From the IMG/VR virus record IMGVR_UViG_3300035661_000015, positions 1-64,000 of that record: DNA of 64,000 nucleotides; one strand, given 5' to 3'. Source of the stretch: a virus (Duplodnaviria; Heunggongvirae; Uroviricota; Caudoviricetes). The notes beneath the pieces are model-generated. The model did no database searches. It had not been told where the DNA came from and was given only the letters and a program-made list of their open reading frames with translations. Both the position numbers and the translations under genes were made by a program. Positions 1-51,304 of this stretch are shown one piece after another. Each line of letters begins with the position of its first letter. Positions within the stretch are counted from its first letter, which is position 1.

Positions 1-100
1 TGCCAAGCAGAAAGAAATCTTTTTACTTGGATTGCTTGGGGAGGTCAACATGAACGATATCAACGCATTTACACCTATCGAAATGAAAGAAGGCCAGTAA
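1..100 (+). CDS. 3' end of a further copy of the tandem paralog family (C-terminal tail ...AKQKEIFLLGLLGEVNMNDINAFTPIEMKEGQ), partial
   Basis: Identical C-terminal tail to the ORFs at 100-849 and onward; TAATG stop-start overlap at 98-102. Confidence 0.6.
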   Translation, partial: AKQKEIFLLGLLGEVNMNDINAFTPIEMKEGQ

Positions 101-849
101 TGAGCAAGTTTCGATCGTTCGATTTATTTACGTCCCGTAATCTGATTCTTGCAAACGACCCTTGCCAGGATGGATTAGCTGATTTTGATGCGGCCTTTCC
201 TGATCTGGTAACAAATCCAGACAGACTGGTTTCCCTGGTGGATGTCGTCAAGGGAATTAAAATTGAATATGCAATCTGGTGTTTAGGGGTAACGCCACCT
301 GAGCAGGTCGAAGATACAAAATTGTTCTGCCGATTATTCGCAGGACAAGTAGCAACGCAGTCGTTACATATTTTCGAGTCCGATTATCCAGGCGACCAGC
401 GACCACGAAAGGCAATCGAAATCGCTCTCAGTAAGACAATTTCCTCTGCCGCCGATGTCGCCCGTGCCTCCGCCCATGCCGCCGATGCCGTCTATGCCGC
501 CGCCCATGCCGACGATGCCGACGATGCCACCTATGCCACCCGTGCCGCCGATGTCGCCCGTGCCGCCGATGCCGCCTATGCCGCCGCCGATGCCGCCTAT
601 CCCGCTGATGCCGCCTATGCCGCCACCTGTGCCGCCGATGCCGCCCATGCCGCCGGTGCCGCCGCCCATGCCGCCGCCCATGCCGCCGCCCGTGCCGCCG
701 TCCGTGCCACCTATGTCGCCCATGCCGCCCATGCCGCCGATGCCATCCGTGCCAAGCAGAAAGAAATCTTTTTACTTGGATTGCTTGGGGAAGTTAATAT
801 GAATGATATCAACGCATTTACACCTATAGAAATGAAAGAAGGCCAGTAA
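100..849 (+). CDS. Tandem paralog 1: conserved ~118-aa N-domain + (Ala-Ala-X)n repeat + conserved C-tail; function unknown
   Basis: ORF track; four near-identical neighbours; ATG overlaps upstream TAA. Confidence 0.7.
   Translation: MSKFRSFDLFTSRNLILANDPCQDGLADFDAAFPDLVTNPDRLVSLVDVVKGIKIEYAIWCLGVTPPEQVEDTKLFCRLFAGQVATQSLHIFESDYPGDQRPRKAIEIALSKTISSAADVARASAHAADAVYAAAHADDADDATYATRAADVARAADAAYAAADAAYPADAAYAATCAADAAHAAGAAAHAAAHAAARAAVRATYVAHAAHAADAIRAKQKEIFLLGLLGEVNMNDINAFTPIEMKEGQ
433..757 (+). repeat. GC-rich 9-bp-periodic triplet repeat (GCC GCC NAT)n inside paralog 1
   Basis: Run of gccgccgat/gcccat/gcctat units; open in all three forward frames and on the minus strand. Confidence 0.85.
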
Positions 850-1514
850 TGAGCAAGTTTCGATCGTTCGATTTATTTACGTCCCGTAATCTGATTCTTG
901 CAAATAGCCCTTGCCAGGATGGATTAGCTGATTTTGATGCGGCCTTTCCTGATCTGGTAACAAATCCAGACAGACTGGTTTCCCTGGTGGATGTCGTCAA
1001 GGGAATTAAAATTGAATATGCAATCTGGTGTTTAGGGGTAACGCCACCTGAGCAGGTCGAAGATACAAAATTGTTCTGCCGATTATTCGCAGGACAAATA
1101 GCAATGCAGTCATTACATATTTTCGAGTCCGATTATCCAGCCGACAAACGGCCACGAAAGGCAATCGAAATTGCTCTCAGCAAGACGATTTCCTCCGTCG
1201 CCGATGCCGCCCGTGCCGCCGCCCATGCCGCCGATGCCGCCTATGCCGCCGCCCATGCCGCCGATGCCGCCGATGCCACCGATGCCGCCGATGCCGCCTA
1301 TGCCGCTCATGCCGCCGCCGATGCCGCCTATCCCGCCGATGCCGCCCGTGCCGCCGACTGTGTTGCCGATGTCACCGATGCCGCCGATGTCACCGATGCC
1401 GCCGATGTCGTCCGTGCCAAGCAGAAAGAAATCTTTTTACTTGGATTGCTCGGGGAGGTCAACATGAACGATATCAACGCATTTACACCTATCGAAATGA
1501 AAGAAGTCCAGTAA
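849..1514 (+). CDS. Tandem paralog 2 (shorter repeat tract)
   Basis: ORF track; conserved N and C flanks. Confidence 0.7.
   Translation: MSKFRSFDLFTSRNLILANSPCQDGLADFDAAFPDLVTNPDRLVSLVDVVKGIKIEYAIWCLGVTPPEQVEDTKLFCRLFAGQIAMQSLHIFESDYPADKRPRKAIEIALSKTISSVADAARAAAHAADAAYAAAHAADAADATDAADAAYAAHAAADAAYPADAARAADCVADVTDAADVTDAADVVRAKQKEIFLLGLLGEVNMNDINAFTPIEMKEVQ
1189..1415 (+). repeat. GCC-rich triplet repeat tract in paralog 2
   Basis: Same repeat units as 433-757, different length. Confidence 0.85.
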
Positions 1515-2320
1515 TGAGCAAGTTTCGATCATTCGATTTATCAGTCAGCCGTAATCTGATTCTCGCAAATCGCCCTTGCGAGGATGGATTAGCTGATTTT
1601 GATGCCGCCTTTCCTGATCTGGTAATAAATTCAGATAGACCTGTTTCCCTGGTGGACGTCGCCAAGGGAATTAAAATTGAATATGCAATCTGGTGTTTAC
1701 GGGTAACGCCACCTGAGCAAGCCGAAGACACAAAATTGTTCTGCCGATTATTCGCAGGACAAGTAGCAATGCAGTCGTTGCATATTTTCGAGTCCGATTA
1801 TCCAGCCGACAAACGGCCACGAAGGGCAATCGGAATCGCTCTCAGTAAGACGATTTTCTCCGCCGCCGATGCCGCCTATGTCGCCTATGCCGTCGATGCC
1901 GCCCATGCCGCCGCCCGTGCCGCCCGTGCCGCCGATGCCGCCTATGCCGCCCGTGCCGCCCGTGCCGCCGCCCATGCCGCCCATGCCGCCCGTGCCGCCG
2001 CCCATGCCGCCGATGCCGCCACCCATGCCGCCCGTGTCGCCGATGCCGCCTATGTCGCCTATGCCGCCCGTGCCGCCGATGCCGCCCGTGCCGCCGCCCG
2101 TGCCGCCATCCGTGCCGCCGATGCCGCCCATGCCGCCGGTGCCGCCGCCCATGCCGCCGCCCATGCCGCCGCCCGTGCCGCCTATGTCGCCCATGTCGCC
2201 GATGCCGCCGATGCCGTCCGTGCCAAGCATAAAGAAATCTTTTTACTTGGATTGCTCGGGGAGGTCAACATGAACGATATGAATACATTTACACCTATCG
2301 AAATGAAAGAAGGCCAGTAA
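1514..2320 (+). CDS. Tandem paralog 3 (longest repeat tract)
   Basis: ORF track; conserved flanks. Confidence 0.7.
   Translation: MSKFRSFDLSVSRNLILANRPCEDGLADFDAAFPDLVINSDRPVSLVDVAKGIKIEYAIWCLRVTPPEQAEDTKLFCRLFAGQVAMQSLHIFESDYPADKRPRRAIGIALSKTIFSAADAAYVAYAVDAAHAAARAARAADAAYAARAARAAAHAAHAARAAAHAADAATHAARVADAAYVAYAARAADAARAAARAAIRAADAAHAAGAAAHAAAHAAARAAYVAHVADAADAVRAKHKEIFLLGLLGEVNMNDMNTFTPIEMKEGQ
1855..2222 (+). repeat. GCC-rich triplet repeat tract in paralog 3
   Basis: Same repeat units. Confidence 0.85.
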
Positions 2321-2802
2321 TGAGCAAGTTTCGATCATTCGATTTATCAGTCAGCCGAAATCTGATTCTTGCAAATGACCCCTGCCAGGATGGATTAGCT
2401 GATTTTGATGCGGCCTTTCCTGATCTGGTAATAAATCCAGACAGACTGGTTTCCCTGGTGGACGTCGCCAAGGGAATTAAAATTGAATATGCAATCTGGT
2501 GTTTAGGGGTAACGCCACCTGACCAAGCCGAAGATACAAAATTGTTCTGCCGATTATTCGCAGGACAAGTAGCAATGCAGTCGTTACATATTTTCGAGTC
2601 CGATTATCCAGGCGACCAGCGACCACGAAAGGCAATCGAAATCGCTCTCAGCAAGACGATTTACTCCGCCGCCGATGTCGCCTATGTCGCCGCCCGTGTC
2701 GCCCATGCCACCGATGCCGTCCGTGCCAAGCAGAAAGAAATCCTTATCGTTGGATTACTCGGACAAGTTGATATGTATGATATTAATACGTTCTTGACAT
2801 AG
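2320..2802 (+). CDS. Tandem paralog 4 (very short repeat tract; divergent C-tail)
   Basis: ORF track; same N-domain; repeat about 20 aa. Confidence 0.65.
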   Translation: MSKFRSFDLSVSRNLILANDPCQDGLADFDAAFPDLVINPDRLVSLVDVAKGIKIEYAIWCLGVTPPDQAEDTKLFCRLFAGQVAMQSLHIFESDYPGDQRPRKAIEIALSKTIYSAADVAYVAARVAHATDAVRAKQKEILIVGLLGQVDMYDINTFLT

Positions 2803-2992: not shown

Positions 2993-3358
2993 TTGGGAGG
3001 CAATGGCGGACTAATGTTATTTTTAAGAGACCTAATAAACAAATGTTCTTCTAAATTAGGACGAGATTGTTACACTGTTCCGTTATACGACCTTATAAAA
3101 GAGGCTTATGTATTAGGTTTAAAACACGGAAATATTTGGAGCAATCTTTCAGAGCAAAAACAGAATGAGTTATCTAGTTGGAAGAAAAAGCAAGATAAAA
3201 AGGTGGCCGATACTCAGGGGAAAGATAAGCCCTATTATGGTGCAATTGGTGGGGCCTATACATATAGTCACACCTTTACTTCTTTAGGGGTTGTACTAAC
3301 AGTTAAAAATGGTTATACTGATGATGAATTAGACCTTAGTGATTATGAGGAGTGGTAA
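2993..3358 (+). CDS. Hypothetical protein
   Basis: ORF track only. Confidence 0.4.
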   Translation: MGGNGGLMLFLRDLINKCSSKLGRDCYTVPLYDLIKEAYVLGLKHGNIWSNLSEQKQNELSSWKKKQDKKVADTQGKDKPYYGAIGGAYTYSHTFTSLGVVLTVKNGYTDDELDLSDYEEW

Positions 3359-3558
3359 TGACCAAACTAAAATTCGTTGCAAAGTTTATGAAATATGTTA
3401 CAATTGGATTGTTGGGCATCTGGGGTTTTGCCCAGACCAATCATCTCGTTAACGAGTCTTTAATTCCCCCCTTTGTTGGGGTCGGGCTCTATTTGTTTAT
3501 CGCGTCCTTGTTGATTGTTTTGTTTTTTGAACCTATTTTTAAGGAACTATCAGAATGA
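3352..3558 (+). CDS. Small hydrophobic membrane protein (possible NfeD-like partner of the downstream SPFH protein)
   Basis: Two hydrophobic segments; overlaps the next gene start. Confidence 0.4.
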   Translation: MVMTKLKFVAKFMKYVTIGLLGIWGFAQTNHLVNESLIPPFVGVGLYLFIASLLIVLFFEPIFKELSE

Positions 3559-4451
3559 AAAAGACCCTACTGTTTGCCGCCCTTACCTTTCCTATGTTTT
3601 TCGCCGGTTGTGGCTGTAATACAGTTGAGCCCGGCTATGTGGGTGTTAAAGTGCCCTATTATGGTGATGCTAAAAATCAAGATTATCAACTCGTACGTGG
3701 CGTAGTGTGGTACAACGGATTCACCGAACGTATTTATGAATTCCCCACATTCTTACAAAGTGTTGTGTGGACTAAGGATACTAACGAGGGGTCGCCAACC
3801 GACGAAAGTGTAACTTTTAATTCGGCAGAAGGTGAGGGTGTAAATGTAGATGTAGCATTTAGTTACACCATTCCAGAAGATAAGGTTAGTGATATCTTTA
3901 AGAAACAACGAAAAGAAATTCGCGAATTGACGCATATATTTCTCCGCTCAGAAGTTCGCGATAGTATTGTTCTACATGGTAGTCGATACAAGATTATTCC
4001 TTTGATTGGTCTTGATAAGGAAAAGTTGATTACCGAAGTTAAGGCCGATCTAATTAAAAAGCTTGGACCACAGGGTTATGAAATTAACGCGATTTCATTC
4101 GTGGGTAAGATGCGTGTTGACCCAAAGGTTGAGGCGTCTATTTCGGCCACTATTACACAGTTGAGTAAGACAGTTGAAGCTGAAAATAAAATTAAGCAGA
4201 GTGAGGCAGAGGCCCGCCAATCTGTTGCGGTAGCTAAGGGTAAGGCTGATGCGGAAGTTCAAGAGGCCGAGGGTAAAGCTAAGGCACGTGTAACAATTGC
4301 GGAAGCCGAAGCTAAGGCCAATACCCTTGTACAAAAATCCCTTACCCCCGAAGTATTGGAATTTAATATGCTCAAACAATGGGATGGTAAACTTCCTCAG
4401 GTGATGGGTGGTGGAGTTTCTCCCTTTGTAAATCTCAAGGATCTAAAGTGA
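3555..4451 (+). CDS. SPFH/band-7 (prohibitin/HflK-like) lipoprotein
   Basis: Lipobox FFAGC; C-terminal Ala/Glu/Lys-rich coiled region typical of the SPFH family. Confidence 0.55.
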   Translation: MKKTLLFAALTFPMFFAGCGCNTVEPGYVGVKVPYYGDAKNQDYQLVRGVVWYNGFTERIYEFPTFLQSVVWTKDTNEGSPTDESVTFNSAEGEGVNVDVAFSYTIPEDKVSDIFKKQRKEIRELTHIFLRSEVRDSIVLHGSRYKIIPLIGLDKEKLITEVKADLIKKLGPQGYEINAISFVGKMRVDPKVEASISATITQLSKTVEAENKIKQSEAEARQSVAVAKGKADAEVQEAEGKAKARVTIAEAEAKANTLVQKSLTPEVLEFNMLKQWDGKLPQVMGGGVSPFVNLKDLK

Positions 4452-9175: not shown

Positions 9176-9684
9176 TATACTTTACCGGATGTTGGCACCT
9201 TGACCATGAGAATATTATAAAATTGACCAATCGCCCTTTTCTTAATATTGAGTCTATGAACAAGGAAATTATTAATAATACGAATGAGATGGTTGGGCCA
9301 AATGATGACCTTTATATTTTAGGCGACACCCTTCTTACTCGGGGACATTATCCGACAAGAATAAATGAGATTATGAATAGCCTTCGGTGTAATAATATTC
9401 ATTATCTTTTGGGAAATCATGATAGACCACTAAGAGATAATAGACGCATGTGCCCCAATAAAATTAGGTCTATAAACGACTATTTAGAATTGAGTTACAA
9501 GAATACAAAGGTTTGCTTATTTCATTATCCGATTTTAGAGTGGAACGCCTGGTTTCATCGGGCGATTCATCTACATAGTCACGTTCACAATAATTTAGAA
9601 AATGCCGAAAGGCGTATGGATGTTGGAGTTGACGCTATGAATTTTGCCCCTATCTCTATTGAAGAGGTATTTGAAATAATATGA
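9172..9684 (+). CDS. Calcineurin-like metallophosphoesterase
   Basis: DHEN, GDTLLTRG and GNHD motifs. Confidence 0.65.
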   Translation: MIYFTGCWHLDHENIIKLTNRPFLNIESMNKEIINNTNEMVGPNDDLYILGDTLLTRGHYPTRINEIMNSLRCNNIHYLLGNHDRPLRDNRRMCPNKIRSINDYLELSYKNTKVCLFHYPILEWNAWFHRAIHLHSHVHNNLENAERRMDVGVDAMNFAPISIEEVFEII

Positions 9685-9726
9685 CTACAACCGATCCGAT
9701 TTATCAAGCTGTAAAGGTTTATTAAA

Positions 9727-10041
9727 ATGAAACAAGATTGTATAGAAGATGTACTTGATAGTATAAGAACTCAAGAGAACGATGAAATTAAAAAAATAAA
9801 AGAGAAGATTGCCATTTTAATTAAGTCCGCCCATTTTCAAGGGCTGACTAGCTTTGTACTTTATTTGCCCTACGAATCTGTTGAGCGATCGTTTGTAGGC
9901 CAAAGGTTTTTTACTTGTAATAATTATAATTATAGCTATATTTTATTGGACCTACATAAAAGAGGCTTTAATCTCAGTGAAATTTTAAAAGATCTAGTCG
10001 GTCATTATTATGTGATGATTGACTATAGTGGAGCCCTATAA
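9727..10041 (+). CDS. Hypothetical protein
   Basis: ORF track. Confidence 0.35.
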   Translation: MKQDCIEDVLDSIRTQENDEIKKIKEKIAILIKSAHFQGLTSFVLYLPYESVERSFVGQRFFTCNNYNYSYILLDLHKRGFNLSEILKDLVGHYYVMIDYSGAL

Positions 10042-10184
10042 TATGATTAACTTTATACTTTTTATATTTGCGTCCTATGGATTAATTTCCTTTATTGTTG
10101 ATACGACGCTTATTGTTTCAGTCATGATAAAGAAAGCTAATCCCCAACGTTTCTATGAATTAGAATTTAAAAAAGATAGACTTC

Positions 10185-10538
10185 ATGGCGAAAACAATCT
10201 TTTGGAGATTTAATATGACAATTTTAGAAGAATGTATTAGTAATATTAAGCAGGCTTTTGTAGTAGAGCCTATGGCCTATGAACTAGAACAAAATATATT
10301 AAAACAGGTGATTTGTTGCTGCAAAGAAAAAAGGACATTCTTTTATTTTTATATTCCTGATAAATATATGGTGACGGACTCTTATAGTTTTAAGTATTCA
10401 CCATGCACCATGTATGCAAATCTTTTTAAAAAAATGAAATATATGGGATTTGATATATCAGATATAGGCTATGGAAAAGACGAATACTTTGCTACAATTA
10501 GCTTTTTTAACATTATAGAAAATCTAAGGTCTAAGTAA
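10185..10538 (+). CDS. Hypothetical protein
   Basis: ORF track. Confidence 0.35.
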   Translation: MAKTIFWRFNMTILEECISNIKQAFVVEPMAYELEQNILKQVICCCKEKRTFFYFYIPDKYMVTDSYSFKYSPCTMYANLFKKMKYMGFDISDIGYGKDEYFATISFFNIIENLRSK

Positions 10539-10548
10539 TACCAATTAA

Positions 10549-10577
10549 AAAAGCCGCCCATAAGGCGGCTTCTTTTG
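10549..10577. terminator. Bidirectional rho-independent terminator between convergent genes
   Basis: AAGCCGCC-cataa-GGCGGCTT followed by CTTTT. Confidence 0.7.
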
Positions 10578-10641
10578 TTAGCGGAGAAATATATGGGGGC
10601 GTTTTCGAGGGGTCGCCCACCCCCTTTACTTTCTCCGCTTA
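10578..10641. repeat. Adjacent forward/reverse motif pair forming a long hairpin between convergent genes
   Basis: TTAGCGGAGAAATATATGGGGGCG ... CGCCCACCCCCTTTACTTTCTCCGCTTA. Confidence 0.8.
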
Positions 10642-11445
10642 TGAACGGGTTGTTGGGGCCGTTGCGGAGTCTAGGGTGAAAGTCTTAACAGCCGTTGTTC
10701 CATCGGCGGCATATAATGTTAGGGTTGTTCCTACTAGAGCCCATTTACCAAACCCCTGTGCTCTTGCGGCGGCTAGGGCACCACCGATAGTTTCTGTATT
10801 GTCTGTCGGGGTAAAAGTTTGGGCTAAATTAATATTCACAGCAGCGGTTACACTTGGGACTGCCCCACTAACGGAAACGGGGGCGGTTACAGAGGCAACG
10901 GCACCACCAGCAAATGTAGATCTCGTACTGATAGCTGCATCAAGATTACTAAGGCTAGTAGCTCTCGCAGAGGTATAACCAATGCCGGAAACACCAACGT
11001 TAATATCGTTTTGAATAGCCGTATGGTCCGCCAAACTTAAGGCGTTGCCAGTAATTGCAACAGTTGAACCAGGAGCCAGAGTTGTTCTCCCGGCAGAATC
11101 AATAGTGGGGAAACCAAATGATGGATTTGTTCCATATAGGGCACCAAAACCATTGGCCGACAAAACCCTAAATTCCTGAAACACAGGAACGAAAAGTCCA
11201 GAATTAAAAATGTCTAAAATGAGTCTCCCGGTCGTATTTGTATCAGTGGTGGATAAAGTGGCTGTATATAGGCCGCTTCCAATTTCTGTAAAAGTTGGTA
11301 AAATATAGTTGGCAGCAACACCATTTTTAGTTAGAATAGATGATGGGGCTACCATACCTAATATGGGAGTTACGCCATCATTAATAGATGTAAACGGACC
11401 AATTCTAATTATAGCCGAGGTCGATACTTGCAGGTCGATAGCCAT
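10639..11445 (-). CDS. Phage structural protein, tail-fibre-like (Gly/Ser/Thr/Ala-rich)
   Basis: Composition and position directly 3' of the tailspike gene. Confidence 0.5.
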   Translation of the reverse strand: MAIDLQVSTSAIIRIGPFTSINDGVTPILGMVAPSSILTKNGVAANYILPTFTEIGSGLYTATLSTTDTNTTGRLILDIFNSGLFVPVFQEFRVLSANGFGALYGTNPSFGFPTIDSAGRTTLAPGSTVAITGNALSLADHTAIQNDINVGVSGIGYTSARATSLSNLDAAISTRSTFAGGAVASVTAPVSVSGAVPSVTAAVNINLAQTFTPTDNTETIGGALAAARAQGFGKWALVGTTLTLYAADGTTAVKTFTLDSATAPTTRS

Positions 11446-13911
11446 TTAAGCAACCTTTCTCGCCCTTCGGCGATCATCAAAAATATTTTTATCTAAATTA
11501 AGTTCAACACGTCTTCTTCTAATTATATTCCAAATTTGCGGAACGATTGACGGATAATATCCGTCTAACGCCCCAGTATCTTGACCATCATGACCAGCTT
11601 TTTTATAAAGTTTATTAGTTGGTCTCCAACCTAACCTAATCTGTGTAATCAGATCTCTAACAATATTTGGATAAGCCACAACATTATTTTTTAGGTAAAC
11701 CGCAAGAGCCTGATAGTCTGCGACGGCACTAACAGCCGTATTTCCATTTGATCCCCAGCCACCTGTTGATGGAATATATTTAGTATAGGCTTTAGATAAA
11801 TCTCTAGTACTATCATAAAATTGCGGATCGGCGTAAATATCTGTAGTTTCCGAAGATGGAGCCGTTGTAAACATAACTATTCTACCAACTGTTCCGCTTG
11901 TAATTGTTCCACCAATAGATGCAACAGTTAAGCTGGTGGCCGAAGAAAGCACTGGGGTGGTCGTCGTAACAATAACGCCATTAAAATTAATTACCGCCCC
12001 GGCATTATTTAGGGCGTTTCCAGGTGTATTTATAGAAATGGTTGTTCCGGACGATACGGTTGAGTTACATGTAATTCCGAACGTATTGCCGAACTTATAA
12101 CCCTTTTTACTTAATGCTGTATTATAATTATAAGTGCCTGTAGATGTAGTTAAATTGTAACCACCATTATATCCGCAATTAGCTGGCAAGACGATATCTG
12201 GTTTATCAATACTTAAACAACCCACTAATAAATTTAAAGTACTAGGAGTGGTAAGACCATAAGATAAATTAGATCTTAAAGAAGCGATTGAACCAGCAGG
12301 TGAAGAACCGCCCAGGTCACCTAAAACGAAAGCCCCCTGAAAACCCGACCCTGTATCAATATTGGCGGTATTATGGTTAAGATATATAGTTGTATTTGCA
12401 TCGGATTTTGTAAAATTAAATACAGATCCACTTGAACCCGGTTTTGCCGGATTTATATTAGGGAGCGATAGGTTATTAATACACCTAATAGTCGTAGCTG
12501 AAACTGTTGCCCAGTTAGTTTCCATATAGTAAAGGGCCGCATTATTTCCGTTATGGTAACTTTGATACACGTTGCCCGAAAAAGCCCCAATATCTCCCGA
12601 TCCGGTACTAAAGGCCCCTGTATGATTCTGTAACTGAATAATATTTGGGTCATTATTAGTAGCGGCGTCAGACAAAATAATATTATCGGTCATCGGCCCC
12701 TGACAAATCATACTAGCACCAGTGTGTTTTATAAAATTATTTGTAAAAGAGGTCCATCGTCCAGCGGCGATTGTACTGTTAACTACTGGAGCTATATTAC
12801 TATCACCAGCCGCACCGTAAGCAAGTATATTTCCAGTAATATTCCAATAGGCAAATCCATTGGCCGAAGTCGCAAGCCTTTTATCTATAGCGTTTCCAGA
12901 AAGAATTCTATTTCCACTTGTATAGCTCGCTCCCCCTTTTAAACTAATAACGTCAGAACCAACACTATTAGTAAAAATATTGCCAGAAATAGTTGCACTA
13001 TGAGTAGCTGTAGGGGCAGTAGTATAAAAAATAGGAGTAGCACAGTTATCAAATGTACAGTTAGTAATATTTAAAGTTGTTTCACCGCCGTACATCGGAA
13101 CAATCCCGGTTGCCGAAGTGTCACCATATTGAAAGTCCGTATAGGTAATATTAACATTTCTCAGCGTAGCTGATTCTGTAAAATATAATTTTGAAGAACT
13201 CGAAGATCCCTTAACGCTAACATGGCTTCCGGAAGTCCCTGCAAAGGTTACATCACTCGCCCTACCTGTAGAATCACTATAAATAACCCATCGGAACGGA
13301 CCTGTACCTGTCGTAGTAATTGCTCCGCCCGGCTCTATATATAAGTCACCAGACTGTAGAACTTTTGCCCCTAATGTTAATGTAGCACCACTCGCAATCC
13401 TTAATGTTGAAACAGGTTTTGAGTTTAGGCCAATTGTTAAATCAAATGTAGCTGACGTGTTTCCGAAAGATTGATTAGTATCAACAGTCAGCGTATGACC
13501 AAATGGAAGGGCCGAAACACCCGAAGCTATAGAACCAGTTAAAGCCGTAACAGGAATAGTTGTATCACCAACACTGGCGGCGGCTGTACTGGTCGTTGTA
13601 ACCGCTCCGAATGTCATACTTGTTCCACTTGGAATTGGTGAAATTAGAGCCGTTATATTTAAAAGTGTAGCACCGGCTGTTTTAGTCGTTCCGGTTGTGG
13701 TAACAGTTGTATAATTAACAACAACCGTATCCAAGTTCGTATGATCCGGAACTCTTCCGTTAGGAACGCCCGACCCAATTACCCACCACGGTCCAGCAAT
13801 CGTAGTATCAGACCAATTACCACTTCTTTGCGTAGTATAAGACGCCCCAAAAACACTCATCCCCAATGTTAAAAATAATGTAAATAAAAGCCCAATCTTA
13901 AAAATTCTCAT
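11446..13911 (-). CDS. Tailspike/tail-fibre protein with right-handed parallel beta-helix (pectate-lyase-like) repeats; N-terminal signal-like segment
   Basis: Repeated NxTxxN/ITNC-type beta-helix rungs; 821 aa. Confidence 0.6.
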   Translation of the reverse strand: MRIFKIGLLFTLFLTLGMSVFGASYTTQRSGNWSDTTIAGPWWVIGSGVPNGRVPDHTNLDTVVVNYTTVTTTGTTKTAGATLLNITALISPIPSGTSMTFGAVTTTSTAAASVGDTTIPVTALTGSIASGVSALPFGHTLTVDTNQSFGNTSATFDLTIGLNSKPVSTLRIASGATLTLGAKVLQSGDLYIEPGGAITTTGTGPFRWVIYSDSTGRASDVTFAGTSGSHVSVKGSSSSSKLYFTESATLRNVNITYTDFQYGDTSATGIVPMYGGETTLNITNCTFDNCATPIFYTTAPTATHSATISGNIFTNSVGSDVISLKGGASYTSGNRILSGNAIDKRLATSANGFAYWNITGNILAYGAAGDSNIAPVVNSTIAAGRWTSFTNNFIKHTGASMICQGPMTDNIILSDAATNNDPNIIQLQNHTGAFSTGSGDIGAFSGNVYQSYHNGNNAALYYMETNWATVSATTIRCINNLSLPNINPAKPGSSGSVFNFTKSDANTTIYLNHNTANIDTGSGFQGAFVLGDLGGSSPAGSIASLRSNLSYGLTTPSTLNLLVGCLSIDKPDIVLPANCGYNGGYNLTTSTGTYNYNTALSKKGYKFGNTFGITCNSTVSSGTTISINTPGNALNNAGAVINFNGVIVTTTTPVLSSATSLTVASIGGTITSGTVGRIVMFTTAPSSETTDIYADPQFYDSTRDLSKAYTKYIPSTGGWGSNGNTAVSAVADYQALAVYLKNNVVAYPNIVRDLITQIRLGWRPTNKLYKKAGHDGQDTGALDGYYPSIVPQIWNIIRRRRVELNLDKNIFDDRRRARKVA

Positions 13912-14736: not shown

Positions 14737-16692
14737 GTGGAAATATTAGAAGAAGAACGTAAGATCGAAACGAATATGCGTAACGCTATTCTCAATATGG
14801 ACATAGATCAAGACTCGGCGATTTTACAGATACTTTTAAGAACTCAGCTTTATAGTGATCCACACGGTTCGGCCATGCGGGAAATTGCCTCGAATTCACG
14901 TGACGCTCATCGTGAGGTTGGTTGTGAAAAACCTATTAGGATTTTCTTTCCCTCGAAAAGTAATCCCCAAATAGTTTTTCAGGATTATGGACCTGGACTT
15001 TCTCCGGAACGTATTAATAATATTTATAAGACTTACTTCGGATCGACTAAACGTGGTTCAAATATACAAACGGGCGGATTTGGTCTAGGAAGTAAAAGCC
15101 CTCTTGCTATCACTGATACTTTTGGAATCGTAACTGTAAATGATGGTGTAAAGTATAATTATTTGGTCTCTGTTGGTGAAAACAATAAGGGCGATATTAT
15201 TCTTCTCGGCGAAGAACTTACCGGAGAAGGTAATGGAACAACTGTGAAGATCCCCATCCAAGAGGATAAGATTCAGTATTGTTCTGATTATATATATAAT
15301 TGTACACGCATGTGGGAACCTCAACCCGAATACATCGGGTACTCTAAGAAAGGGGATGTTCCTAAAGTTACAATAAGTGGAGACGGTTGGGCGATTTACG
15401 AGAAGTATCCCGGCACGTGTATTTTATTGGACGGCATTCCATACAATTGCAATAATAAAGAAATCCTTAATAATTTGCCCCATAGTAACTTTTGCTTTAT
15501 TCTTAAGACGGGCGAAGTAGAGGTATCTCTTTCACGCGAGTCACTTTACTTTTCAGAAAAGACAAATGGCAAATTAAAAAATATTCTTGATGAATTCTCC
15601 CTTATTATCAAAGATAAGATTCAGTCTGAGTTAGACGCCTGTGACGATCTTTTTAAATTACTAAAACGGGTAAATGAATTTGAAAATGGGGCACATGGTT
15701 ATAAAAGTGTCCGAATTGATTATTCATATATGGGAACTCCTCTTAATTTAAATAGTTCGCCCGATTCTATTTCCGTAATAGTATCAGAAAAAGATGGTCA
15801 AAAAAGATGTAGCTACAGTAACCTGGCCTATGACTATAATAGGTACGATCAATTTAAAATTATCCTAATCGATTACGATAAATTAACTTATGAATATCCA
15901 CACACCTATAGACCAAATGAGATTATTAAAATTCAGTCATATATGCCGACCAATGCGACAAAAAATAGAATACGCGGAAAATTATTGAAAGATAATATTG
16001 ATAAACTTATATTACTATCTCCGGAAAGTGGACTTTTTAACTTAATTAAAATATATTTTCCCCAAAATTTCACCTGGATGAAGGACTTTTGTAAGATTTC
16101 TCATAAAGTCCCAAAAACAAAAAGAAAAAATTTAATTCCCGTCTATCCTGGTGGTGGTCACTATGCTTCTAAAATCGATTTAGATGATACGACCATAAAG
16201 TATATTTGGGAAAATAAGTCTAGATATGGTGGACAAAAAGAAATTTATGAAATCGCTAAAACTCTAGGTTATACCTATGTTGAAATTTCAAATAAATTTG
16301 TTCCTAGGATAAGACTTAATCCTAATTTTATTACAGTTGATCAGTTCTATAAAAAAGAACTTGTGGAAAATATCGGGAGGGAAAGACTAGAGAAGATAAT
16401 TCTAAGTATTGATTTTTCTTATAAGCACGATCATAGACTTGCTTTATTGGTAGATGCGAAGTATAATGAATATATAGAATGGAAAAAGAATAATTCCGAT
16501 ATAGAAAAATATTTTCCACTGATTGAATTATATTTCAAAAAAACTAATTGGAATATTGGTTCATCAGCCATAAGGCTAGATTTTTCTAAGTATCCAATGT
16601 TACAATTCATTCTCAAAGAACCTCTCAGTGACGAATCTTTAAAAGCGGTCGAAGAATATATTAAACTCGTAAATAAAGGAAAGAAAAAATGA
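14737..16692 (+). CDS. GHKL-family ATPase (HSP90/MORC/MutL-like Bergerat fold)
   Basis: N-box REIASNSRDA, G1 QDYGPG, G2 GGFGLGSKS. Confidence 0.6.
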   Translation: MEILEEERKIETNMRNAILNMDIDQDSAILQILLRTQLYSDPHGSAMREIASNSRDAHREVGCEKPIRIFFPSKSNPQIVFQDYGPGLSPERINNIYKTYFGSTKRGSNIQTGGFGLGSKSPLAITDTFGIVTVNDGVKYNYLVSVGENNKGDIILLGEELTGEGNGTTVKIPIQEDKIQYCSDYIYNCTRMWEPQPEYIGYSKKGDVPKVTISGDGWAIYEKYPGTCILLDGIPYNCNNKEILNNLPHSNFCFILKTGEVEVSLSRESLYFSEKTNGKLKNILDEFSLIIKDKIQSELDACDDLFKLLKRVNEFENGAHGYKSVRIDYSYMGTPLNLNSSPDSISVIVSEKDGQKRCSYSNLAYDYNRYDQFKIILIDYDKLTYEYPHTYRPNEIIKIQSYMPTNATKNRIRGKLLKDNIDKLILLSPESGLFNLIKIYFPQNFTWMKDFCKISHKVPKTKRKNLIPVYPGGGHYASKIDLDDTTIKYIWENKSRYGGQKEIYEIAKTLGYTYVEISNKFVPRIRLNPNFITVDQFYKKELVENIGRERLEKIILSIDFSYKHDHRLALLVDAKYNEYIEWKKNNSDIEKYFPLIELYFKKTNWNIGSSAIRLDFSKYPMLQFILKEPLSDESLKAVEEYIKLVNKGKKK

Positions 16693-44463: not shown

Positions 44464-44535
44464 GGCCCATTCGTATAGTGGCTAAGACGACCGCTTTTCA
44501 GGTGGTAGAAAACGGATCGAAACCGTTATGGGCTA
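44464..44535 (+). tRNA. tRNA-Glu (anticodon TTC)
   Basis: Cloverleaf by eye: acceptor, D-arm, ACCGC-TTTTCAG-GTGGT, T-arm AACGG-ATCGAAA-CCGTT. Confidence 0.65.
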
Positions 44536-44692
44536 TCTTTAGTTATTGTCGCTTACATGGATAGTTTAGGCAATGAATAAAGAACGGTAAATTAAACATG
44601 ATGTTGCTGGACGGGAACATTGTATCTAAAATTTAATTTACTTACCCCGTCCATTAACTTTCTTGTCGGTGGTTCGATTCCCTCACTTATCT

Positions 44693-44767
44693 TCGGGGAG
44701 TGACGGTGTTGGTACTGTCAAAAGCCTTTGAAACTTTTTGACCTTGGTTCGATTCCAAGTCCCCGAA
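44693..44767 (+). tRNA. tRNA-Gln (anticodon TTG)
   Basis: Acceptor TCGGGGA/TCCCCGA; D-arm; loop CTTTGAA; T-arm CTTGG-TTCGATT-CCAAG. Confidence 0.65.
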
Positions 44768-44771
44768 CTTT

Positions 44772-44843
44772 GCCTGAGTAGCTTAATGGTAAAGCACCCG
44801 ATCTGTAATCGGGCAACTCGGAGTTCAAATCTCTGCTTAGGCT
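44772..44843 (+). tRNA. tRNA with anticodon loop TCTGTAA (apparent TGT, Thr; C at position 33)
   Basis: Acceptor GCCTGAG/CTTAGGC; D-arm GCTT/AAGC; CCCGA/TCGGG; T-arm. Confidence 0.55.
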
Positions 44844-44850
44844 CTTTAAT

Positions 44851-44921
44851 GCGTCAGTGATGTAGTGGTTGCATGAGACTCTTCCAAAGTCTATGAAAGA
44901 ATTCGATTTTCTTCTGACGTA
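44851..44921 (+). tRNA. tRNA-Gly (anticodon TCC)
   Basis: Acceptor GCGTCAG/CTGACGT; AGACT-CTTCCAA-AGTCT; T-arm AAGAA-TTCGATT-TTCTT. Confidence 0.65.
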
Positions 44922-45018
44922 CTAGCTGGACCATACCTAGTCTTTTTGTGATGAAAATAATGAAAAGTATCGTCCGTCTGGTGCTTAAAGGAATTTTTAT
45001 TAAAGGGAGCGTAGTTCT

Positions 45019-46337: not shown

Positions 46338-46644
46338 CATCTTGTATAAAGGGGTTCAACATACAGTGGTAGTTGACTTAGATGATTTTGACAAAGTATC
46401 TAAATATAAATGGCACTTGAATAAGCATAATAAAAAAGATGGGAGTGAGTTGAGGGTTCAAACAAATCTCCCAAGATCACAGGGAAAGCGTCCTAAGCTT
46501 AGGCTACATATTTTAATTGCGGGTAAGCCAAAGGAAGGAAACGTAGTTGACCACATAGATAGAAATCCACGTAATTGTAAAAAAGAAAATCTTCGTCACG
46601 TGAGCGTGGCGGAAAATAACCGCAATAGAGGCAAAAGAGAATGA
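46279..46644 (+). CDS. HNH homing endonuclease
   Basis: VVDHIDRNPRNCKKENLRHVSVAENN. Confidence 0.65.
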   Translation: MVSWFMKHDYRTQNNEVLFNILYKGVQHTVVVDLDDFDKVSKYKWHLNKHNKKDGSELRVQTNLPRSQGKRPKLRLHILIAGKPKEGNVVDHIDRNPRNCKKENLRHVSVAENNRNRGKRE

Positions 46645-48557
46645 GTATATTTGAAAAACGGGTAGCTTTTAAACCATATGAGTATCCAGATGTTCTAAAA
46701 TTTAGAGACGCTATCAATCATAGTTATTGGATTGTTACAGAATTTAATTTTTCTAGTGATGTACAGGACTTTAAAACTAATTTAACCGAAGTGGAGAGAC
46801 ATGCTATTAGGAACGCCCTTTTAGCTATTTCGCAGATTGAGATTTCCGTAAAAAAGTTTTGGGCAAAGATCGGGGATAAGTTTCCAAAGTCCGAATTTGA
46901 TCAGGTAGGTATAGTTTTTGCGGAATCCGAAGTTAGGCATGCTCAAGCTTATTCTGAGCTATTAGAAATTCTTGGTCTAAATGATGATTTTACCGGATTA
47001 CTTCAAGAGCCATCAATCCAGGGTCGGGTCGAATACTTAACAAAATATTTAAAAAACGCCTCAGATAACTCAAACGAAAACTATACATTGACATTGACTC
47101 TATTTTCTATTTTTATTGAGAATGTGAGTCTTTTTTCGCAATTCCTAATCATCCAATCGTTCAATAAATACAAAAATATATTAAAAGATATAGATAATGT
47201 AGTTCAGGCTACTCAGAAGGAAGAGTGTTATTCAGAAGATACTGATATTTTAACACCTAACGGTTGGGTGCCATTAAAAGATATAAAGAACGGAGATTCG
47301 GTTTATCAGTTTAAAAATGGTAAAATCACAAAAACAACCGCTTCAAATAAAATTGAGAGAGATTATAATGGACGGATGTATGAGATTGGTAATAAGTCAA
47401 GTAATTGCTTAGTAACTCCTGGTCATGAAATGGTTTATATCAACAAGATGGGGGATTATGAAAAGAATACCGCTAAAGATATTAAGTATCATTCAAAAAT
47501 AAAAATTCCTGCCGGTGGTATTTTAGAAAATAATTCTGAAGAAAAGTTGACGTGGAGTGAGCGTCTCCAAATCGCTATGCAATCTGATGCGACTAGATTA
47601 TATTGGATTAACGCCAATGGTGAAAAAATTTGGAGAGGAAAAGATGGTGGTTATAACTATGAGTTCACACTAACAAAACAAAGAAAAAAGGATAGGTTAA
47701 GATTAATTTTAAATAATACAAATATTGAGTTTGTAGAACAAGATATTGGTAAAGAGACGGAATTTAAAATAAAATATAACAATGATAATGATTATAAAAC
47801 ATTTACTTGGGTTGATTTAAGTAATAAAAATAAAGATTGGTGCATAGATTTTGTTCAAGAGTGCGTTGAGTGGGATGGATATAGAGGTGGCAGCAACATG
47901 GGGTTTAGCACTACGAATAAAAAGGTGGCCGATATTTTTCATGCTATTTCTGTACTGGCGGGTTATAGAACAAATCTTTTGACTAATAAAAGTAAAAGAG
48001 GATATAAGGATTGTTATAAAATTAGTATAAGTGAAAGGTCACTTACCCCATCTGGACACAGTTACGATAAAGTCGAACAAGGTTATAGTGGTATGGTTTA
48101 TTGCGTTACCGTTCCATCTGGAATCATTATCACAAGACGCAACGGAAAGGTTTGTGTTGCCGGAAATTGCCTACATGCACTTTTCGGGGTTTATCTGATC
48201 AAAGAAATTCAAAAAGAGTGTCCCGATTGGTTTAATGAGGATTTTTATAATAAGTTATATAGGGCTTGTAAGAAAGCGTATGAGGCAGAGGAAAAGATTA
48301 TAGACTGGATATTTGAAAAGGGTGAACTTGATTTTCTACCGAAAGATATTGTAAAAGAGTTTATTAAGGATAGGTTTAATGAGAGCTTACTTATGGTGGG
48401 CGGAAAAGAAGTTTTTGAAGTTGATACGGAGAAGTTAAGTTCTTTAAGTTGGTTCAACGAAGGTGTTAGTGGCCAGACCAGTACAGATTTTTTCCATAAA
48501 AAACCAGTGACTTATAGCAAAAAAACAAAATCAATCAAAGCGGGAGACTTATTCTAA
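46641..48557 (+). CDS. nrdB: Ribonucleotide reductase small subunit NrdB interrupted by an intein
   Basis: R2 ferritin-like fold motifs; extein junction QKEE|C...N|CLHALF matches RDEGLHCDF. Confidence 0.8.
   Translation: MSIFEKRVAFKPYEYPDVLKFRDAINHSYWIVTEFNFSSDVQDFKTNLTEVERHAIRNALLAISQIEISVKKFWAKIGDKFPKSEFDQVGIVFAESEVRHAQAYSELLEILGLNDDFTGLLQEPSIQGRVEYLTKYLKNASDNSNENYTLTLTLFSIFIENVSLFSQFLIIQSFNKYKNILKDIDNVVQATQKEECYSEDTDILTPNGWVPLKDIKNGDSVYQFKNGKITKTTASNKIERDYNGRMYEIGNKSSNCLVTPGHEMVYINKMGDYEKNTAKDIKYHSKIKIPAGGILENNSEEKLTWSERLQIAMQSDATRLYWINANGEKIWRGKDGGYNYEFTLTKQRKKDRLRLILNNTNIEFVEQDIGKETEFKIKYNNDNDYKTFTWVDLSNKNKDWCIDFVQECVEWDGYRGGSNMGFSTTNKKVADIFHAISVLAGYRTNLLTNKSKRGYKDCYKISISERSLTPSGHSYDKVEQGYSGMVYCVTVPSGIIITRRNGKVCVAGNCLHALFGVYLIKEIQKECPDWFNEDFYNKLYRACKKAYEAEEKIIDWIFEKGELDFLPKDIVKEFIKDRFNESLLMVGGKEVFEVDTEKLSSLSWFNEGVSGQTSTDFFHKKPVTYSKKTKSIKAGDLF
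47226..48167 (+). mobile_element. Intein in NrdB (Cys1 ... Asn, +1 Cys; about 314 aa with endonuclease-like middle)
   Basis: Begins CYSEDTD, ends VCVAGN followed by C; host protein continuity restored when removed. Confidence 0.7.
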
Positions 48558-51304
48558 TGGGTTATAGATGGTTAAATAAGTTATCACAAGATTTTCTTGA
48601 AAAAGACTACTTGCTACCAGGGCAAACGGTTGACGAACGTGTTAATATTATCTGTAATCATGCGGAAAATATTTTAAAATTACCGGGATTTGCAGCTAAA
48701 CTTAAGGCCAATTTTGAAAAAGGTTGGTATTCTTTTAGTACCCCAATCTGGACTAATTTTGGGACCGATAGAGGTTTAGCTATATCTTGTTTTGGTTCGT
48801 ATATAGAAGATACGATGGAGTCGATTGCGGGCACATGGGCCGAAGTCTGTATGATGACTAAACTAGGTGGTGGCACATCGGCTTATTTTGGCGATCTTCG
48901 CCCACGTGGGGCCGAAATTAAAAATAATGGAAAAAGTTCGGGTTCGGTCAATTTTATGGAAGCTTTTGATACCTTGATAAATATCGCTAGTCAAGGCTCC
49001 AGTAGACGTGGTAATTGTGCCGTATATTTGCCGGTTGATCATAAGGATATTGAAGAATTTTTACAGATCAGGCAAGAGGGGCATCCTATCCAAGACTTGT
49101 CTTTCGGCGTCTGTATTCCTGAGGGCTGGATGCAAAGCATGATTGATGGAGATCAATCTAAGCGGAAAATATGGGCCCGTATTTTGGAATGCCGATCTAA
49201 TATGGGCTATCCTTATATTTTCTTTTCGGATAATGTAAGTAATGGTACAGTAGATTGTTATAAAAATACGGATAGAAAAATCACCCACTCTAATTTATGT
49301 TGTGTTACAAAAGATCAGAGAGTTGTTTCGGATCGGGGGCTATTAACAGTTGAGGAATTATATAATATAGGAGGTGAATTAAAATTATTTGACGGGATCA
49401 ATCAGGTGTCGGCTTCGCCGATGTTAAAGATATCTGATTCTGAAGATATTTTTAAGATTACCCTAGATAATGGATTAACACATAAAGTTACTAGCGAGCA
49501 TAGAATTGAAACCAATAAGGGAATGGTAAAATTAAAAGATCTAAAAATTAGAGATAAGGTTGCAATTCAATTAAATACTGGTATTTTTGGTAATAAATCA
49601 ATGGAAGATGAGGCGTTTTTACTTGGAACCTATCAGGCTAATGGTACTCAAAATAAAGATAATATTTATCTTGATCTATGGGAACATAGTTTTGATCTAA
49701 TTGAAGAAATAGAGACTAGGTTTAGTAATGTGTTTTATAAATATAGTTGCGATAAGTATGATATTACAAATCAGTATAACTCAACTTTTCAAAGATCTAT
49801 TGATCCAACTAAATTTTATGATTGTGTCGTAACTGATTCGCCCATAAAGAAAAAGAGACTTGGGTCAAATTGTCTTAAAAAGGCACTAAATTTTGAAAAA
49901 GGATATATTCCTAATTGGATTTGGGAATCGGATGAAAAAACTCAGTGGCAGTATATTAGAGGCCTTTTCTACGCCGATGGCACTATCAGTATGACAAATG
50001 ATAAGGGTAGCCCTATTTACTTAAGCATCAGTAATATTAATAAAGCTTTTCTTGAAGAATTACAAATATTGCTTTTAAATCTCGGGGCAAGGTTTGCATT
50101 ATCTTTAGGTAATCCGGCTGGCGAAAGATCGCTACCAAATGGTAAAGGTGGTTATAGTCTATATAATTGCCAAGATTGCTATAGGCTAGTTTGTGGTAGT
50201 AAAGTTGCCGCATTATTATTTGAGAAGAATATACAATTTTTAACCCGTAAAGGTATAGAATTAGAAAATAGGGTATATAGGGACAATACCAAGAAATTCT
50301 CTAGAATTAAATCTATTGAGCATATTGGACAAGATTCCGTATACTGCTGTGAGGTTTATACCAATGATCACAAATGGGTTTGCAACGGAATAATTACTCA
50401 TAATAGTGAAATACTTTTACCAGATAACGCCGAAGAATCATTTGTATGTGATCTTTCTAGTATGAATATGATTTACTACGATGAATGGAAAGATACTGAC
50501 GCTATTGAACTACTGGTCTATCTTCTAGATGCGGTAATGACAGATTTTATTGAAAAGGCTAAGAAAATTAAATTTATGGAGCGGGCCGTTAGGTTTGCTG
50601 AAAATCATAGGGCTCTTGGGATCGGTTGGTTTGGGTGGCACAGTCTTTTGCAAAGTAAGATGATTGCTTTTGAAAGTATGGAAGCAAAGTATTTAAATAT
50701 TGAAATCGCCAAAAATATGAAAGAAAAAGCCTATGGGGCGTCGGCAAAAATGGCCGAAGAGTACGGTGAGTGTAAGATGACTAAAGGGTATGGACGTAGA
50801 CACGTAACACTTTCCGCAATCGCCCCCACAAAATCCTCTTCTTTTATTATTGAACAAGCCTCCGAAGCAGTCGAGCCCGATACGGCGAATATCACAGTCA
50901 AGGATTTAGCCAAGGGAAAAGTCACTATTAAAAATAAATACTTAATTAAAATATTGGAAACTAAGGGAAAGAATACTGAAAAAGTCTGGTCGTCTATTTT
51001 AAAAATGGGCGGATCTGTTCAACATTTAGATTTTTTAACAAATGAAGAAAAAGCGGTATTCAAAACCTTCGGAGAAATTTCTCCGCGTGAAATTATAATT
51101 CAGGCCGCCCAAAGACAGAAATATATTGATCAGTCTCAATCTATTAATTTAATGATCCATCCATCAGTACCGACTAAAGATGTAAATGCCCTACTTATTG
51201 AAGCTTGGCAAATGGGTGTAAAAACCCTATATTATCAAAAAAGTGTTAACGCCTCTCAAGAATTTGCTAAAAATATTCTGAATTGTTCGTCTTGCGAAGG
51301 TTGA
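48557..51304 (+). CDS. nrdA: Ribonucleotide reductase large subunit NrdA interrupted by an intein at the active-site NLC|SEI
   Basis: ATP-cone/RNR motifs; SNLC then intein then SEILLPDN. Confidence 0.85.
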   Translation: MGYRWLNKLSQDFLEKDYLLPGQTVDERVNIICNHAENILKLPGFAAKLKANFEKGWYSFSTPIWTNFGTDRGLAISCFGSYIEDTMESIAGTWAEVCMMTKLGGGTSAYFGDLRPRGAEIKNNGKSSGSVNFMEAFDTLINIASQGSSRRGNCAVYLPVDHKDIEEFLQIRQEGHPIQDLSFGVCIPEGWMQSMIDGDQSKRKIWARILECRSNMGYPYIFFSDNVSNGTVDCYKNTDRKITHSNLCCVTKDQRVVSDRGLLTVEELYNIGGELKLFDGINQVSASPMLKISDSEDIFKITLDNGLTHKVTSEHRIETNKGMVKLKDLKIRDKVAIQLNTGIFGNKSMEDEAFLLGTYQANGTQNKDNIYLDLWEHSFDLIEEIETRFSNVFYKYSCDKYDITNQYNSTFQRSIDPTKFYDCVVTDSPIKKKRLGSNCLKKALNFEKGYIPNWIWESDEKTQWQYIRGLFYADGTISMTNDKGSPIYLSISNINKAFLEELQILLLNLGARFALSLGNPAGERSLPNGKGGYSLYNCQDCYRLVCGSKVAALLFEKNIQFLTRKGIELENRVYRDNTKKFSRIKSIEHIGQDSVYCCEVYTNDHKWVCNGIITHNSEILLPDNAEESFVCDLSSMNMIYYDEWKDTDAIELLVYLLDAVMTDFIEKAKKIKFMERAVRFAENHRALGIGWFGWHSLLQSKMIAFESMEAKYLNIEIAKNMKEKAYGASAKMAEEYGECKMTKGYGRRHVTLSAIAPTKSSSFIIEQASEAVEPDTANITVKDLAKGKVTIKNKYLIKILETKGKNTEKVWSSILKMGGSVQHLDFLTNEEKAVFKTFGEISPREIIIQAAQRQKYIDQSQSINLMIHPSVPTKDVNALLIEAWQMGVKTLYYQKSVNASQEFAKNILNCSSCEG
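49301..50404 (+). mobile_element. Intein in NrdA (Cys1 ... His-Asn, +1 Ser; 368 aa; LAGLIDADG-like GLFYADGTI)
   Basis: CVTKDQ ... ITHN|S; homing endonuclease motif inside. Confidence 0.8.

Follow-up and report, generated by a model that had tools for sequence, protein, structure and literature searches.

Tandem Imm5-like paralogs with minisatellite-coded alanine-rich tracts in an uncultured phage

What is encoded by a row of closely similar phage genes, each carrying a GC-rich repeat of its own length, and how do the repeats come to differ? Such a row fills positions 1–2802 of IMG/VR virus record IMGVR_UViG_3300035661_000015, a 129-kb contig of which the first 64,000 nucleotides (the window) were analysed here. 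A description made from the nucleotide letters alone (the sequence-only reading) had taken the locus for a tandem array of paralogs with hypervariable (Ala-Ala-X)n repeats. That description proved largely right: its observation was partly confirmed and its interpretation partly supported. We conclude that the locus is a real, divergent, phage-borne example of a widespread catalogued family and not a new kind of system. We propose that it is probably an operon of at least four to five Imm5-like paralogs, serving as polyimmunity-like binders in phage-host conflict.

Organization of the array

Four complete plus-strand open reading frames (ORFs) and the 3′ end of one further upstream copy fill positions 1–2802. 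The features are as follows.

1–100, plus strand: upstream partial copy, C-tail only (last 32 codons, stop TAA at 98–100)
100–849, plus strand: copy 1, 249 aa; N-domain nt 100–447, Ala-rich tract nt 448–747 (100 aa, GC 0.75), tail nt 748–849
849–1514, plus strand: copy 2, 221 aa; tract nt 1197–1412 (72 aa, GC 0.74)
1514–2320, plus strand: copy 3, 268 aa; tract nt 1862–2218 (119 aa, GC 0.79)
2320–2802, plus strand: copy 4, the last, 160 aa; tract nt 2668–2721 (18 aa)
833–851, plus strand: inter-copy junction, Shine-Dalgarno (SD)-like GAAGG within the last tail codons, then TAATG
84–102, 1498–1516 (GAAGT here) and 2304–2322, plus strand: further junctions with the same SD-like and TAATG layout

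All copies follow one plan, in which a 116-aa N-domain ending in LSKTIxS leads into an Ala-rich tract and then into a tail of 26–33 aa. The plan had been predicted correctly, with slightly different sizes (about 118 aa for the N-domain and 32 aa for the tail). The tail of copies 1–3, 33 aa long, is RAKQKEIFLLGLLGEVNMNDINAFTPIEMKEGQ, and translation of the upstream partial copy from base 2 gives AKQKEIFLLGLLGEVNMNDINAFTPIEMKEGQ followed by its stop. In copy 4 the tail is diverged, has only 26 aa, lacks the TPIEMKEGQ extension and ends with the stop codon TAG. The flanks of the tracts had been called perfectly conserved, which they are not: at the DNA level the N-domains are 90–96% identical among copies, with 5–16 nonsynonymous and 7–13 synonymous codon differences per pair, and the tails of copies 1–3 are 90–95% identical. 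The G + C content is 0.72–0.79 in the tracts, 0.44–0.46 in the N-domains, 0.36–0.41 in the tails and about 0.37 in the remaining window, in agreement with the earlier view of tracts of about 70% GC in an AT-rich genome.

All four inter-copy junctions have the form CAGTAATGAGC, in which the stop TAA and the next ATG share one base (TAATG); the coupling by TAATG overlaps was therefore found at every junction, for four complete copies and one partial copy. The SD-like GAAGG lies 8–12 nt 5′ of the next ATG, inside the final codons of the preceding gene, and it is the TPIEMKEGQ tail extension of copies 1–3 that holds both the SD and the TAATG for the gene that follows. No promoter-like sites were found inside the array. 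One terminator-like match was present (1766–1781, inside copy 3), and shuffled sequence gave 4.2 on average. The overlapping junctions and SD-like sites, together with the lack of an internal promoter, support a single polycistronic, translationally coupled unit. The layout is that of a polyimmunity locus: tandem paralogs on the same strand, overlapping by 1 nt, with nothing interleaved.

Family assignment of the N-domain

The N-domain had been considered unrecognisable. Direct comparison with Pfam PF21805 (Imm5_like) gave 20.0 bits for copy 4 (E 6.5e-4), 19.2 bits for copy 3 (E 1.2e-3), 9.9 bits for copy 2 and no match for copy 1. Among PHROGs, phrog_18326 (function unknown) matched copy 2 (E 2e-11) and copy 1 (E 5e-5). 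A phmmer-type search of 5.8 billion sequences gave just eight close relatives. All come from JGI metagenomes, and their contigs are the 128,912-bp source contig and others of 14,097 bp, 10,924 bp and under 2,000 bp. One of these relatives (P0002), on another contig, is 98% identical to copy 4 and equal in length; the 10,924- and 14,097-bp contigs each encode at least two distinct paralogs with different tracts (P0003–P0008). The same type of search linked copy 4 to two distant PF21805-positive proteins, P0009 and P0010 (E 5e-4).

Profile searching of 1.84 billion representatives revealed 6,711 proteins at E ≤ 1e-3, counted as cluster representatives at 50% identity, of which 1,720 reached E ≤ 1e-10; most were 150–220 aa long. 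When 58 of the matches were sampled (alignment A3), 55 hit PF21805 Imm5_like and 25 hit Imm5 itself (PF14423). An alignment of the window clade alone (A5) was compared by hhalign with 40 distant proteins (A6) drawn from the same 58, and the two matched over residues 6–110 with 99.7% probability and E 1.8e-25.

The N-domain of the family has the form TTLN.IR...PC..GW.KLL..LGK...DEP..L..IL.SNG..DA.WCLR ... LFA.DCAE.VL.IFE..YP.D.RPR.AI, and it is followed by a variable Ala-rich stretch (AAWDAARD, AAYAADAA or similar) and a short tail, E.K.Q...F...F. The window copies carry the corresponding motifs PC.DG, AIWCL and FE.DYP.D.RPRKAI, and have the same architecture of a helical N-domain with the RPR.AI motif, Ala-rich repeats and a short C-terminal helix. 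Identity of the window clade to typical Imm5_like members is 26–38%. These profile matches place the window clade in the Imm5-like “putative immunity protein” superfamily, as a divergent branch. One relative bears the NCBI name ‘putative immunity protein’, and the structural neighbours in BFVD include an ‘Imm-5-like domain-containing protein’ (UniProt name) from an uncultured phage. An NCBIfam scan returned low-complexity noise only and a PADLOC scan no match; the window sequence had no match among cultured-phage records at the nucleotide or the protein level, and copy 4 had no close relative in scans of IMG/VR and of the metagenome contigs.

Structure prediction for copy 2 with AlphaFold2 was poor when close relatives only were aligned (predicted local distance difference test, pLDDT, 58). 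With the 58-sequence alignment an all-helical model was obtained with a mean pLDDT of 80.8, exceeding 90 in the N-domain and lying at 83–91 in the C-terminal helix. No secretion signal or membrane segment was evident in the sequence or the model, as seen without a formal test.

The tract as a DNA-level repeat

The tracts are coded by GCC-GCC-NAT and are 100, 72, 119 and 18 aa long in copies 1 to 4, or about 6–40 tripeptide equivalents. The length thus differs in every copy, as had been noted; the range of 20 to 120 given earlier for the units fits residues instead. Tandem Repeats Finder reported a period of 9, with higher-order periods of 21, 30, 39 and 84. Of the 177 alanine codons in the tracts, 175 are GCC, compared with 34% GCC in 26 other long ORFs of the window and 15 of 48 in the N-domains and tails of the array genes themselves. 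Three other residues are just as uniform in their codons, with CGT for Arg in 19/19, CAT for His in 20/20 and TAT for Tyr in 16/16 cases. No tRNA-Ala that could serve the GCC run was found among the five tRNAs of the window, and a special phage tRNA was rejected as an explanation.

A 71-nt block within the tract is identical in copies 1 and 3 (629–699 and 2112–2182). The variable sites of the N-domains also form a mosaic, grouping copies 1 and 2 apart from copies 3 and 4 over nt 18–209 and then copies 1 and 4 apart from copies 2 and 3 over nt 293–303; this block-wise pattern is a signature of recombination or gene conversion among the copies. Among close relatives of the window genes in other assemblies, tract lengths are different again and block mosaics occur (e.g. 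P0006, P0007 and P0008). These data support expansion, contraction and recombination of the tract at the DNA level, and are in line with the slippage or gene conversion postulated before. The unit is 9 nt, with 12-nt variants, and all four tracts are multiples of 3 nt, so that N-domain and tail stay in frame. Likeness to a contingency locus is accordingly loose, as length and sequence can change but the gene cannot be switched on or off.

One-step variants of GCC fall at codon positions 1, 2 and 3 in 12, 24 and 2 cases (P = 4e-5 versus equal thirds), and all 93 variable codons considered end in T, the C-ending synonym being used in none. Since the variants are concentrated at positions 1 and 2, most changes in the tracts alter the amino acid and hardly any are synonymous. 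In our reading, a few unit types were amplified recently, and residue diversity was selected for or at least tolerated. The tracts of copies 1 and 2 are Asp-rich and acidic, and that of copy 3 has 11 Arg and 9 Asp.

Tracts and arrays in the wider family

In 150 tracts from phage loci and loci of metagenome-assembled genomes (MAGs), a single alanine codon accounted for a median of 67%, versus 33% in neighbouring genes, and in many it reached 90% or more, the codon being GCT, GCC or GCG according to lineage. Tract lengths span 15–140 aa. One 90%-identity cluster in a distant branch holds 13 proteins with near-identical flanks (a few single-residue differences), with lengths of 131, 139, 143, 147, 155, 159, 187 and 239 aa, and its members differ by the 4-aa units DAAW, DAAR and VAAR. 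These observations support a tract expansion of minisatellite type that is family-wide and not peculiar to the window locus.

Locus searches, which used a narrower alignment (A4) than the broad A3, found tandem arrays on other contigs as well.

L053, 44-kb contig: five coupled copies and others, the longest IMG/VR array
L072, start of a 335-kb contig: five copies
L065, L035, L045 and L028, viral contigs: tandem arrays
L086, gammaproteobacterial MAG contig: tandem array

Fused giant proteins with 7–11 Imm5_like stretches also occur (P0011, 2,410 aa, and P0039, 3,069 aa). P0039, from a 619-kb contig in NCBI/ENA, additionally has a NUDIX domain and an N-terminal DGTHR motif that by eye resembles ParB. 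Directly 3′ of the L053 array (9526–11496) lies a gene for a 656-aa protein which by eye has the look of an SMC/SbcC-type coiled-coil ATPase.

Relatives numbered 146 in 2.9 M viral contigs versus 47 in 32 M genome contigs, a rough comparison, as the search patterns were similar and not identical. In other phages the Imm5-like genes sit in early, accessory, recombination and anti-restriction gene regions, with ParB-methyltransferases, C5-cytosine methyltransferases, RecT/ERF annealing proteins, RadC and pentapeptide-repeat proteins as recurrent neighbours. With the typical member P0026 as query, cultured carriers were found in Pseudomonas phages PPpW-3 and AF, Erwinia phage phiEt88, Curvibacter phage P26059A and Methanosarcina virus MetMV. 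The P26059A member (L127 3001–3588; KY981271.1 64394–64981) is labelled ‘tail fiber protein’ in GenBank, probably a misannotation prompted by the Ala-rich repeat; small early genes surround it, including one for a Lar-type restriction-alleviation protein.

Alternative explanations of the array and its tracts

Tracts of this family disturb short-read assembly. At 20 of 79 IMG/VR loci a family gene runs off the contig end, usually on the 3′ (tract) side, where 4.4 would be expected (Poisson P = 4e-8), and base 1 of the window lies 4 nt past the end of the upstream copy's GC-rich tract. Because it starts so close after a tract, like other IMG/VR contig ends, base 1 is probably a contig end left by an assembly break, and the copy number of the array is at least four plus a fragment. 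It would nevertheless be very unlikely that mis-assembly had turned one gene or fewer genes into a tandem array and given it false tract lengths. The array itself is not artefactual, because the four copies differ at 4–10% of N-domain sites in a structured mosaic, two other contigs carry at least two distinct paralogs each and a third carries the 98%-identical homolog of copy 4 with the same length. Every junction is, moreover, intact and in frame, and comparable arrays are present on unrelated phage contigs. The question of which frame is read arises from the earlier statement that the tracts are stop-free in all plus frames and on the minus strand, with (PPM)n (plus strand) or (GGI/GGM)n (minus strand) as possible products of frameshifting or antisense genes. 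Long ORFs do exist in those frames, and as we read the sequence, many of the nucleotide differences would be synonymous in the +1 frame (CCN). However, stops do occur in the tracts: one in the +2 frame of copy 1, 1–6 per copy in one minus frame and 2 in a second minus frame of copy 2; what openness remains is due to the codon vocabulary of GCC, GAT, CAT, TAT and CGT. In every copy, frame 0 alone runs from the conserved N-domain into the conserved tail, and the Ala-rich frame is kept in thousands of relatives. GCT-coded relatives would read (LLM)n and (SSI)n, and GCT/GCG-coded relatives give quite different peptides in the alternative frames (e.g. SSSISS on the minus strand of L053), so only the Ala frame is conserved. 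Functional alternative frames are accordingly most improbable, and dual coding was rejected on the tract stops and these relatives. Targeted diversification of the tract, for instance by a diversity-generating retroelement (DGR), instead of slippage would account for variable codons NAT/NGT with an invariant third base, which superficially resemble DGR variable regions, and for changes that are overwhelmingly nonsynonymous. Yet the motif GCCGCCNATGCC is confined to the array and to one strand, and neither strand of the 64 kb has a template repeat. AAT, which would be the unmutated template codon, occurs at 0 of the 93 variable codons, adenine-free codons vary too (GCC to GTC or ACC), and variation in tract length is not an effect of a DGR. 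No reverse transcriptase is present among the annotated ORFs of the window, in which no search aimed at reverse transcriptase was made. A DGR is thus hardly credible here and was excluded as far as the 64-kb window allows, that is, for about half of the 129-kb contig.

Proposed function of the locus

The proposal of an Imm5-like binder operon follows from the locus having the structure of a homogeneous polyimmunity locus. Each gene would give a small all-helical protein, with a conserved globular N-domain, Ala-rich helical segments in variable number and, at the C-terminus, an amphipathic helix that closes the protein. The in-frame 9-nt minisatellite (GCC GCC NAT) grows and shrinks, probably by replication slippage, and unequal recombination or gene conversion between copies probably shuffles the tracts; each paralog would then show a different Asp/His/Tyr/Arg pattern on an alanine scaffold. 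The copies would be co-transcribed and translationally coupled, with the SD and TAATG of the next copy placed in the tail of the previous one, and the last copy, having no successor, lacks the tail extension. By family assignment and analogy with polyimmunity loci, we infer that binding and neutralisation of several toxin-type effectors met during infection is the most likely role of the proteins. Candidate targets would be host abortive-infection or toxin-antitoxin toxins, or the toxins of competitors. Array anatomy, family membership, repeat dynamics at the DNA level and the recurrence of such arrays among phages are established by the observations above; the neutralising activity and its targets belong to the proposal.

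Several points weigh against this proposal. All window copies score under the PF21805 gathering threshold (25 bits). In the literature searched there is no functional study of the Imm5_like family (PF21805), and ‘immunity’ is an inference of the curators. No solved structure resembles the AlphaFold2 model of copy 2, and confidence of that model is low in the tract part (pLDDT 52–84). The 3′ flank of the array contains no toxin domain, and the 5′ flank lies outside the window, although a polyimmunity locus would not be expected to include a toxin gene anyway. Short-read metagenome assemblies often break or collapse at such tracts, which leaves the exact lengths and the copy number uncertain. 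It is possible, if somewhat unlikely, that the family is real and has another role, in DNA mimicry or anti-restriction, as scaffold or adaptor, or in regulation, the tract being a tunable spacer. Besides the lack of a functional test of any member in the literature searched, this would fit the early, recombination and anti-restriction genes that neighbour the family in phages, the acidic tracts of copies 1 and 2, and the apparent, roughly estimated, far greater abundance of the family on viral contigs than in cellular genomes. However, the charge of the tracts is not consistently acidic, as copy 3 shows, and many relatives have balanced W/D/R units; a consistent DNA-mimic charge pattern was rejected on the Arg and Asp counts of copy 3. 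The profile-level kinship to Imm5 proper (25 of the 58), which is linked by neighbourhood to deaminase and CdiA-CT toxins, and the tandem and fused multi-copy layouts, which match polyimmunity loci and proteins, also argue for the binder operon. As an extension of the latter, the Imm5-like family might be a mainly phage-borne, slippage-driven diversity generator, in which minisatellite change and block exchange would yield new helical surfaces studded with Tyr, Asp, His, Arg and Trp, that is, polyvalent inhibitors of host toxins or defence effectors and a retroelement-free analogue of a DGR. This is a speculative and unlikely extension; the 36 GCC variants at positions 1–2 versus 2 at position 3 and the recurrence of single-codon tracts in many lineages are compatible with it and no proof of it. 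For alanine-rich variable repeats of phages, too, the literature searched contained no functional study.

Genomic setting

The window encodes rIIA (14737–16692), rIIB, RtcB, ribonucleotide reductase (RNR), NAMPT and five tRNAs. No rIIA of a cultured phage exceeds 26% identity to that of the window. The carrier is a large, novel, AT-rich uncultured phage. On its 3′ side the array is followed by a small membrane ORF and an SPFH/Band-7 lipoprotein gene, and by genes for a GT2 glycosyltransferase, RtcB (4.6 kb from the array), an AAA ATPase and a phosphoesterase. The first two lie directly 3′ of the array, as follows.

3352–3558: small membrane ORF, overlapping the start of the SPFH/Band-7 gene
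3555–4451: SPFH/Band-7 lipoprotein gene (Pfam PF01145, E 9e-17; phrog_200)

RtcB was considered as a recurrent neighbour of the family and rejected, being absent from the recurrent neighbour clusters of the viral loci. In Pseudomonas phage PPpW-3, gp54 (L126 3564–4564) lies directly 3′ of a short ORF annotated ‘tRNA splicing ligase RtcB’.

Both RNR ORFs of the window (46641–48557, 638 aa, and 48557–51304, 915 aa) match RNR PHROGs in two separated stretches each, and their middles match unrelated PHROGs (PhoH-like, thymidylate-synthase and terminase-like), which suggests putative inteins or inserted domains in both. ARAGORN predicted an 82-nt tRNA-Tyr at 26221–26302 with the unusual anticodon ATA; the tRNAs for Glu, Gln, Thr and Gly are clustered at 44464–44922.

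Significance and comparison with known systems

The Imm5_like family is very large (about 6,700 representatives at 50% identity) and common in phages, and the present locus is a clean natural example of coupled tandem paralogs combined with a tract of a single alanine codon and amino-acid variation without synonymous variation. The family-wide minisatellite coding of the tract and its disruption of assembly seem to be undescribed in the literature searched. Because the tracts break short-read assemblies (20 of the 79 viral loci), copy numbers and tract lengths of the family in metagenomic phage genomes are systematically unreliable. If the proteins do act as inhibitors of toxins or defence effectors, the arrays would be a widespread polyvalent counter-defence of phages, with diversity drawn from simple repeat instability.

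Imm5 proteins form an immunity family of mostly alpha fold in which R and D are conserved, and gene neighbourhood connects them with DYW-type deaminase and CdiA-CT toxins (Zhang et al. 2012, PMC3482391). The window proteins share with Imm5_like PF21805 and Imm5 PF14423 a homologous N-domain with the motifs PC..G, W-CL and FE..YP.D.RPR.AI, a predicted all-alpha fold, the conserved D and R, an Ala-rich variable tract and a short C-terminal helix. Unlike Imm5_like members, the window clade uses 3-aa AAx units coded GCC GCC NAT, and its copies have an additional TPIEMKEGQ tail that carries the coupling signals; the carrier differs as well, being an rII phage of lytic type, and no toxin gene is in view.

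Homogeneous polyimmunity loci consist of tandem, same-strand, tightly spaced paralogs without toxins, and polyimmunity proteins are their fused form; Imm5 is not listed among the prominent homogeneous polyimmunity families (PMC3482391). Immunity-gene arrays of acquired interbacterial defence (AID) occur on mobile elements (bioRxiv 10.1101/471110). The window array resembles both in its one-family tandem paralogs of the same orientation, with minimal or overlapping spacing and no interleaved toxins, perhaps also in content that differs between related genomes, and in the existence of fused multi-copy versions (P0011 and P0039). It differs in being carried by a phage and not by a bacterial chromosome or integrative element, and in having its diversity mainly in a minisatellite-coded tract and not in divergence of whole domains.

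In variable-number tandem repeats within genes and in contingency loci, a short intragenic DNA repeat undergoes rapid copy-number change by slippage or recombination and gives rise to protein variants. The window tract is alike as a short repeat within a gene that gives protein variants, probably with quick change in copy number, but its 9-nt unit keeps the frame and gives no on/off phase switch, its protein appears to be cytoplasmic and not a surface antigen, and several paralogous copies can exchange blocks. With DGR variable proteins the likeness is a functional analogy only, that of a phage-borne diversification of a putative ligand-binding surface rich in Tyr, Asp, His and Arg; the window differs from these in having neither a template repeat nor an A-specific signature, and in the varying length of its tracts.

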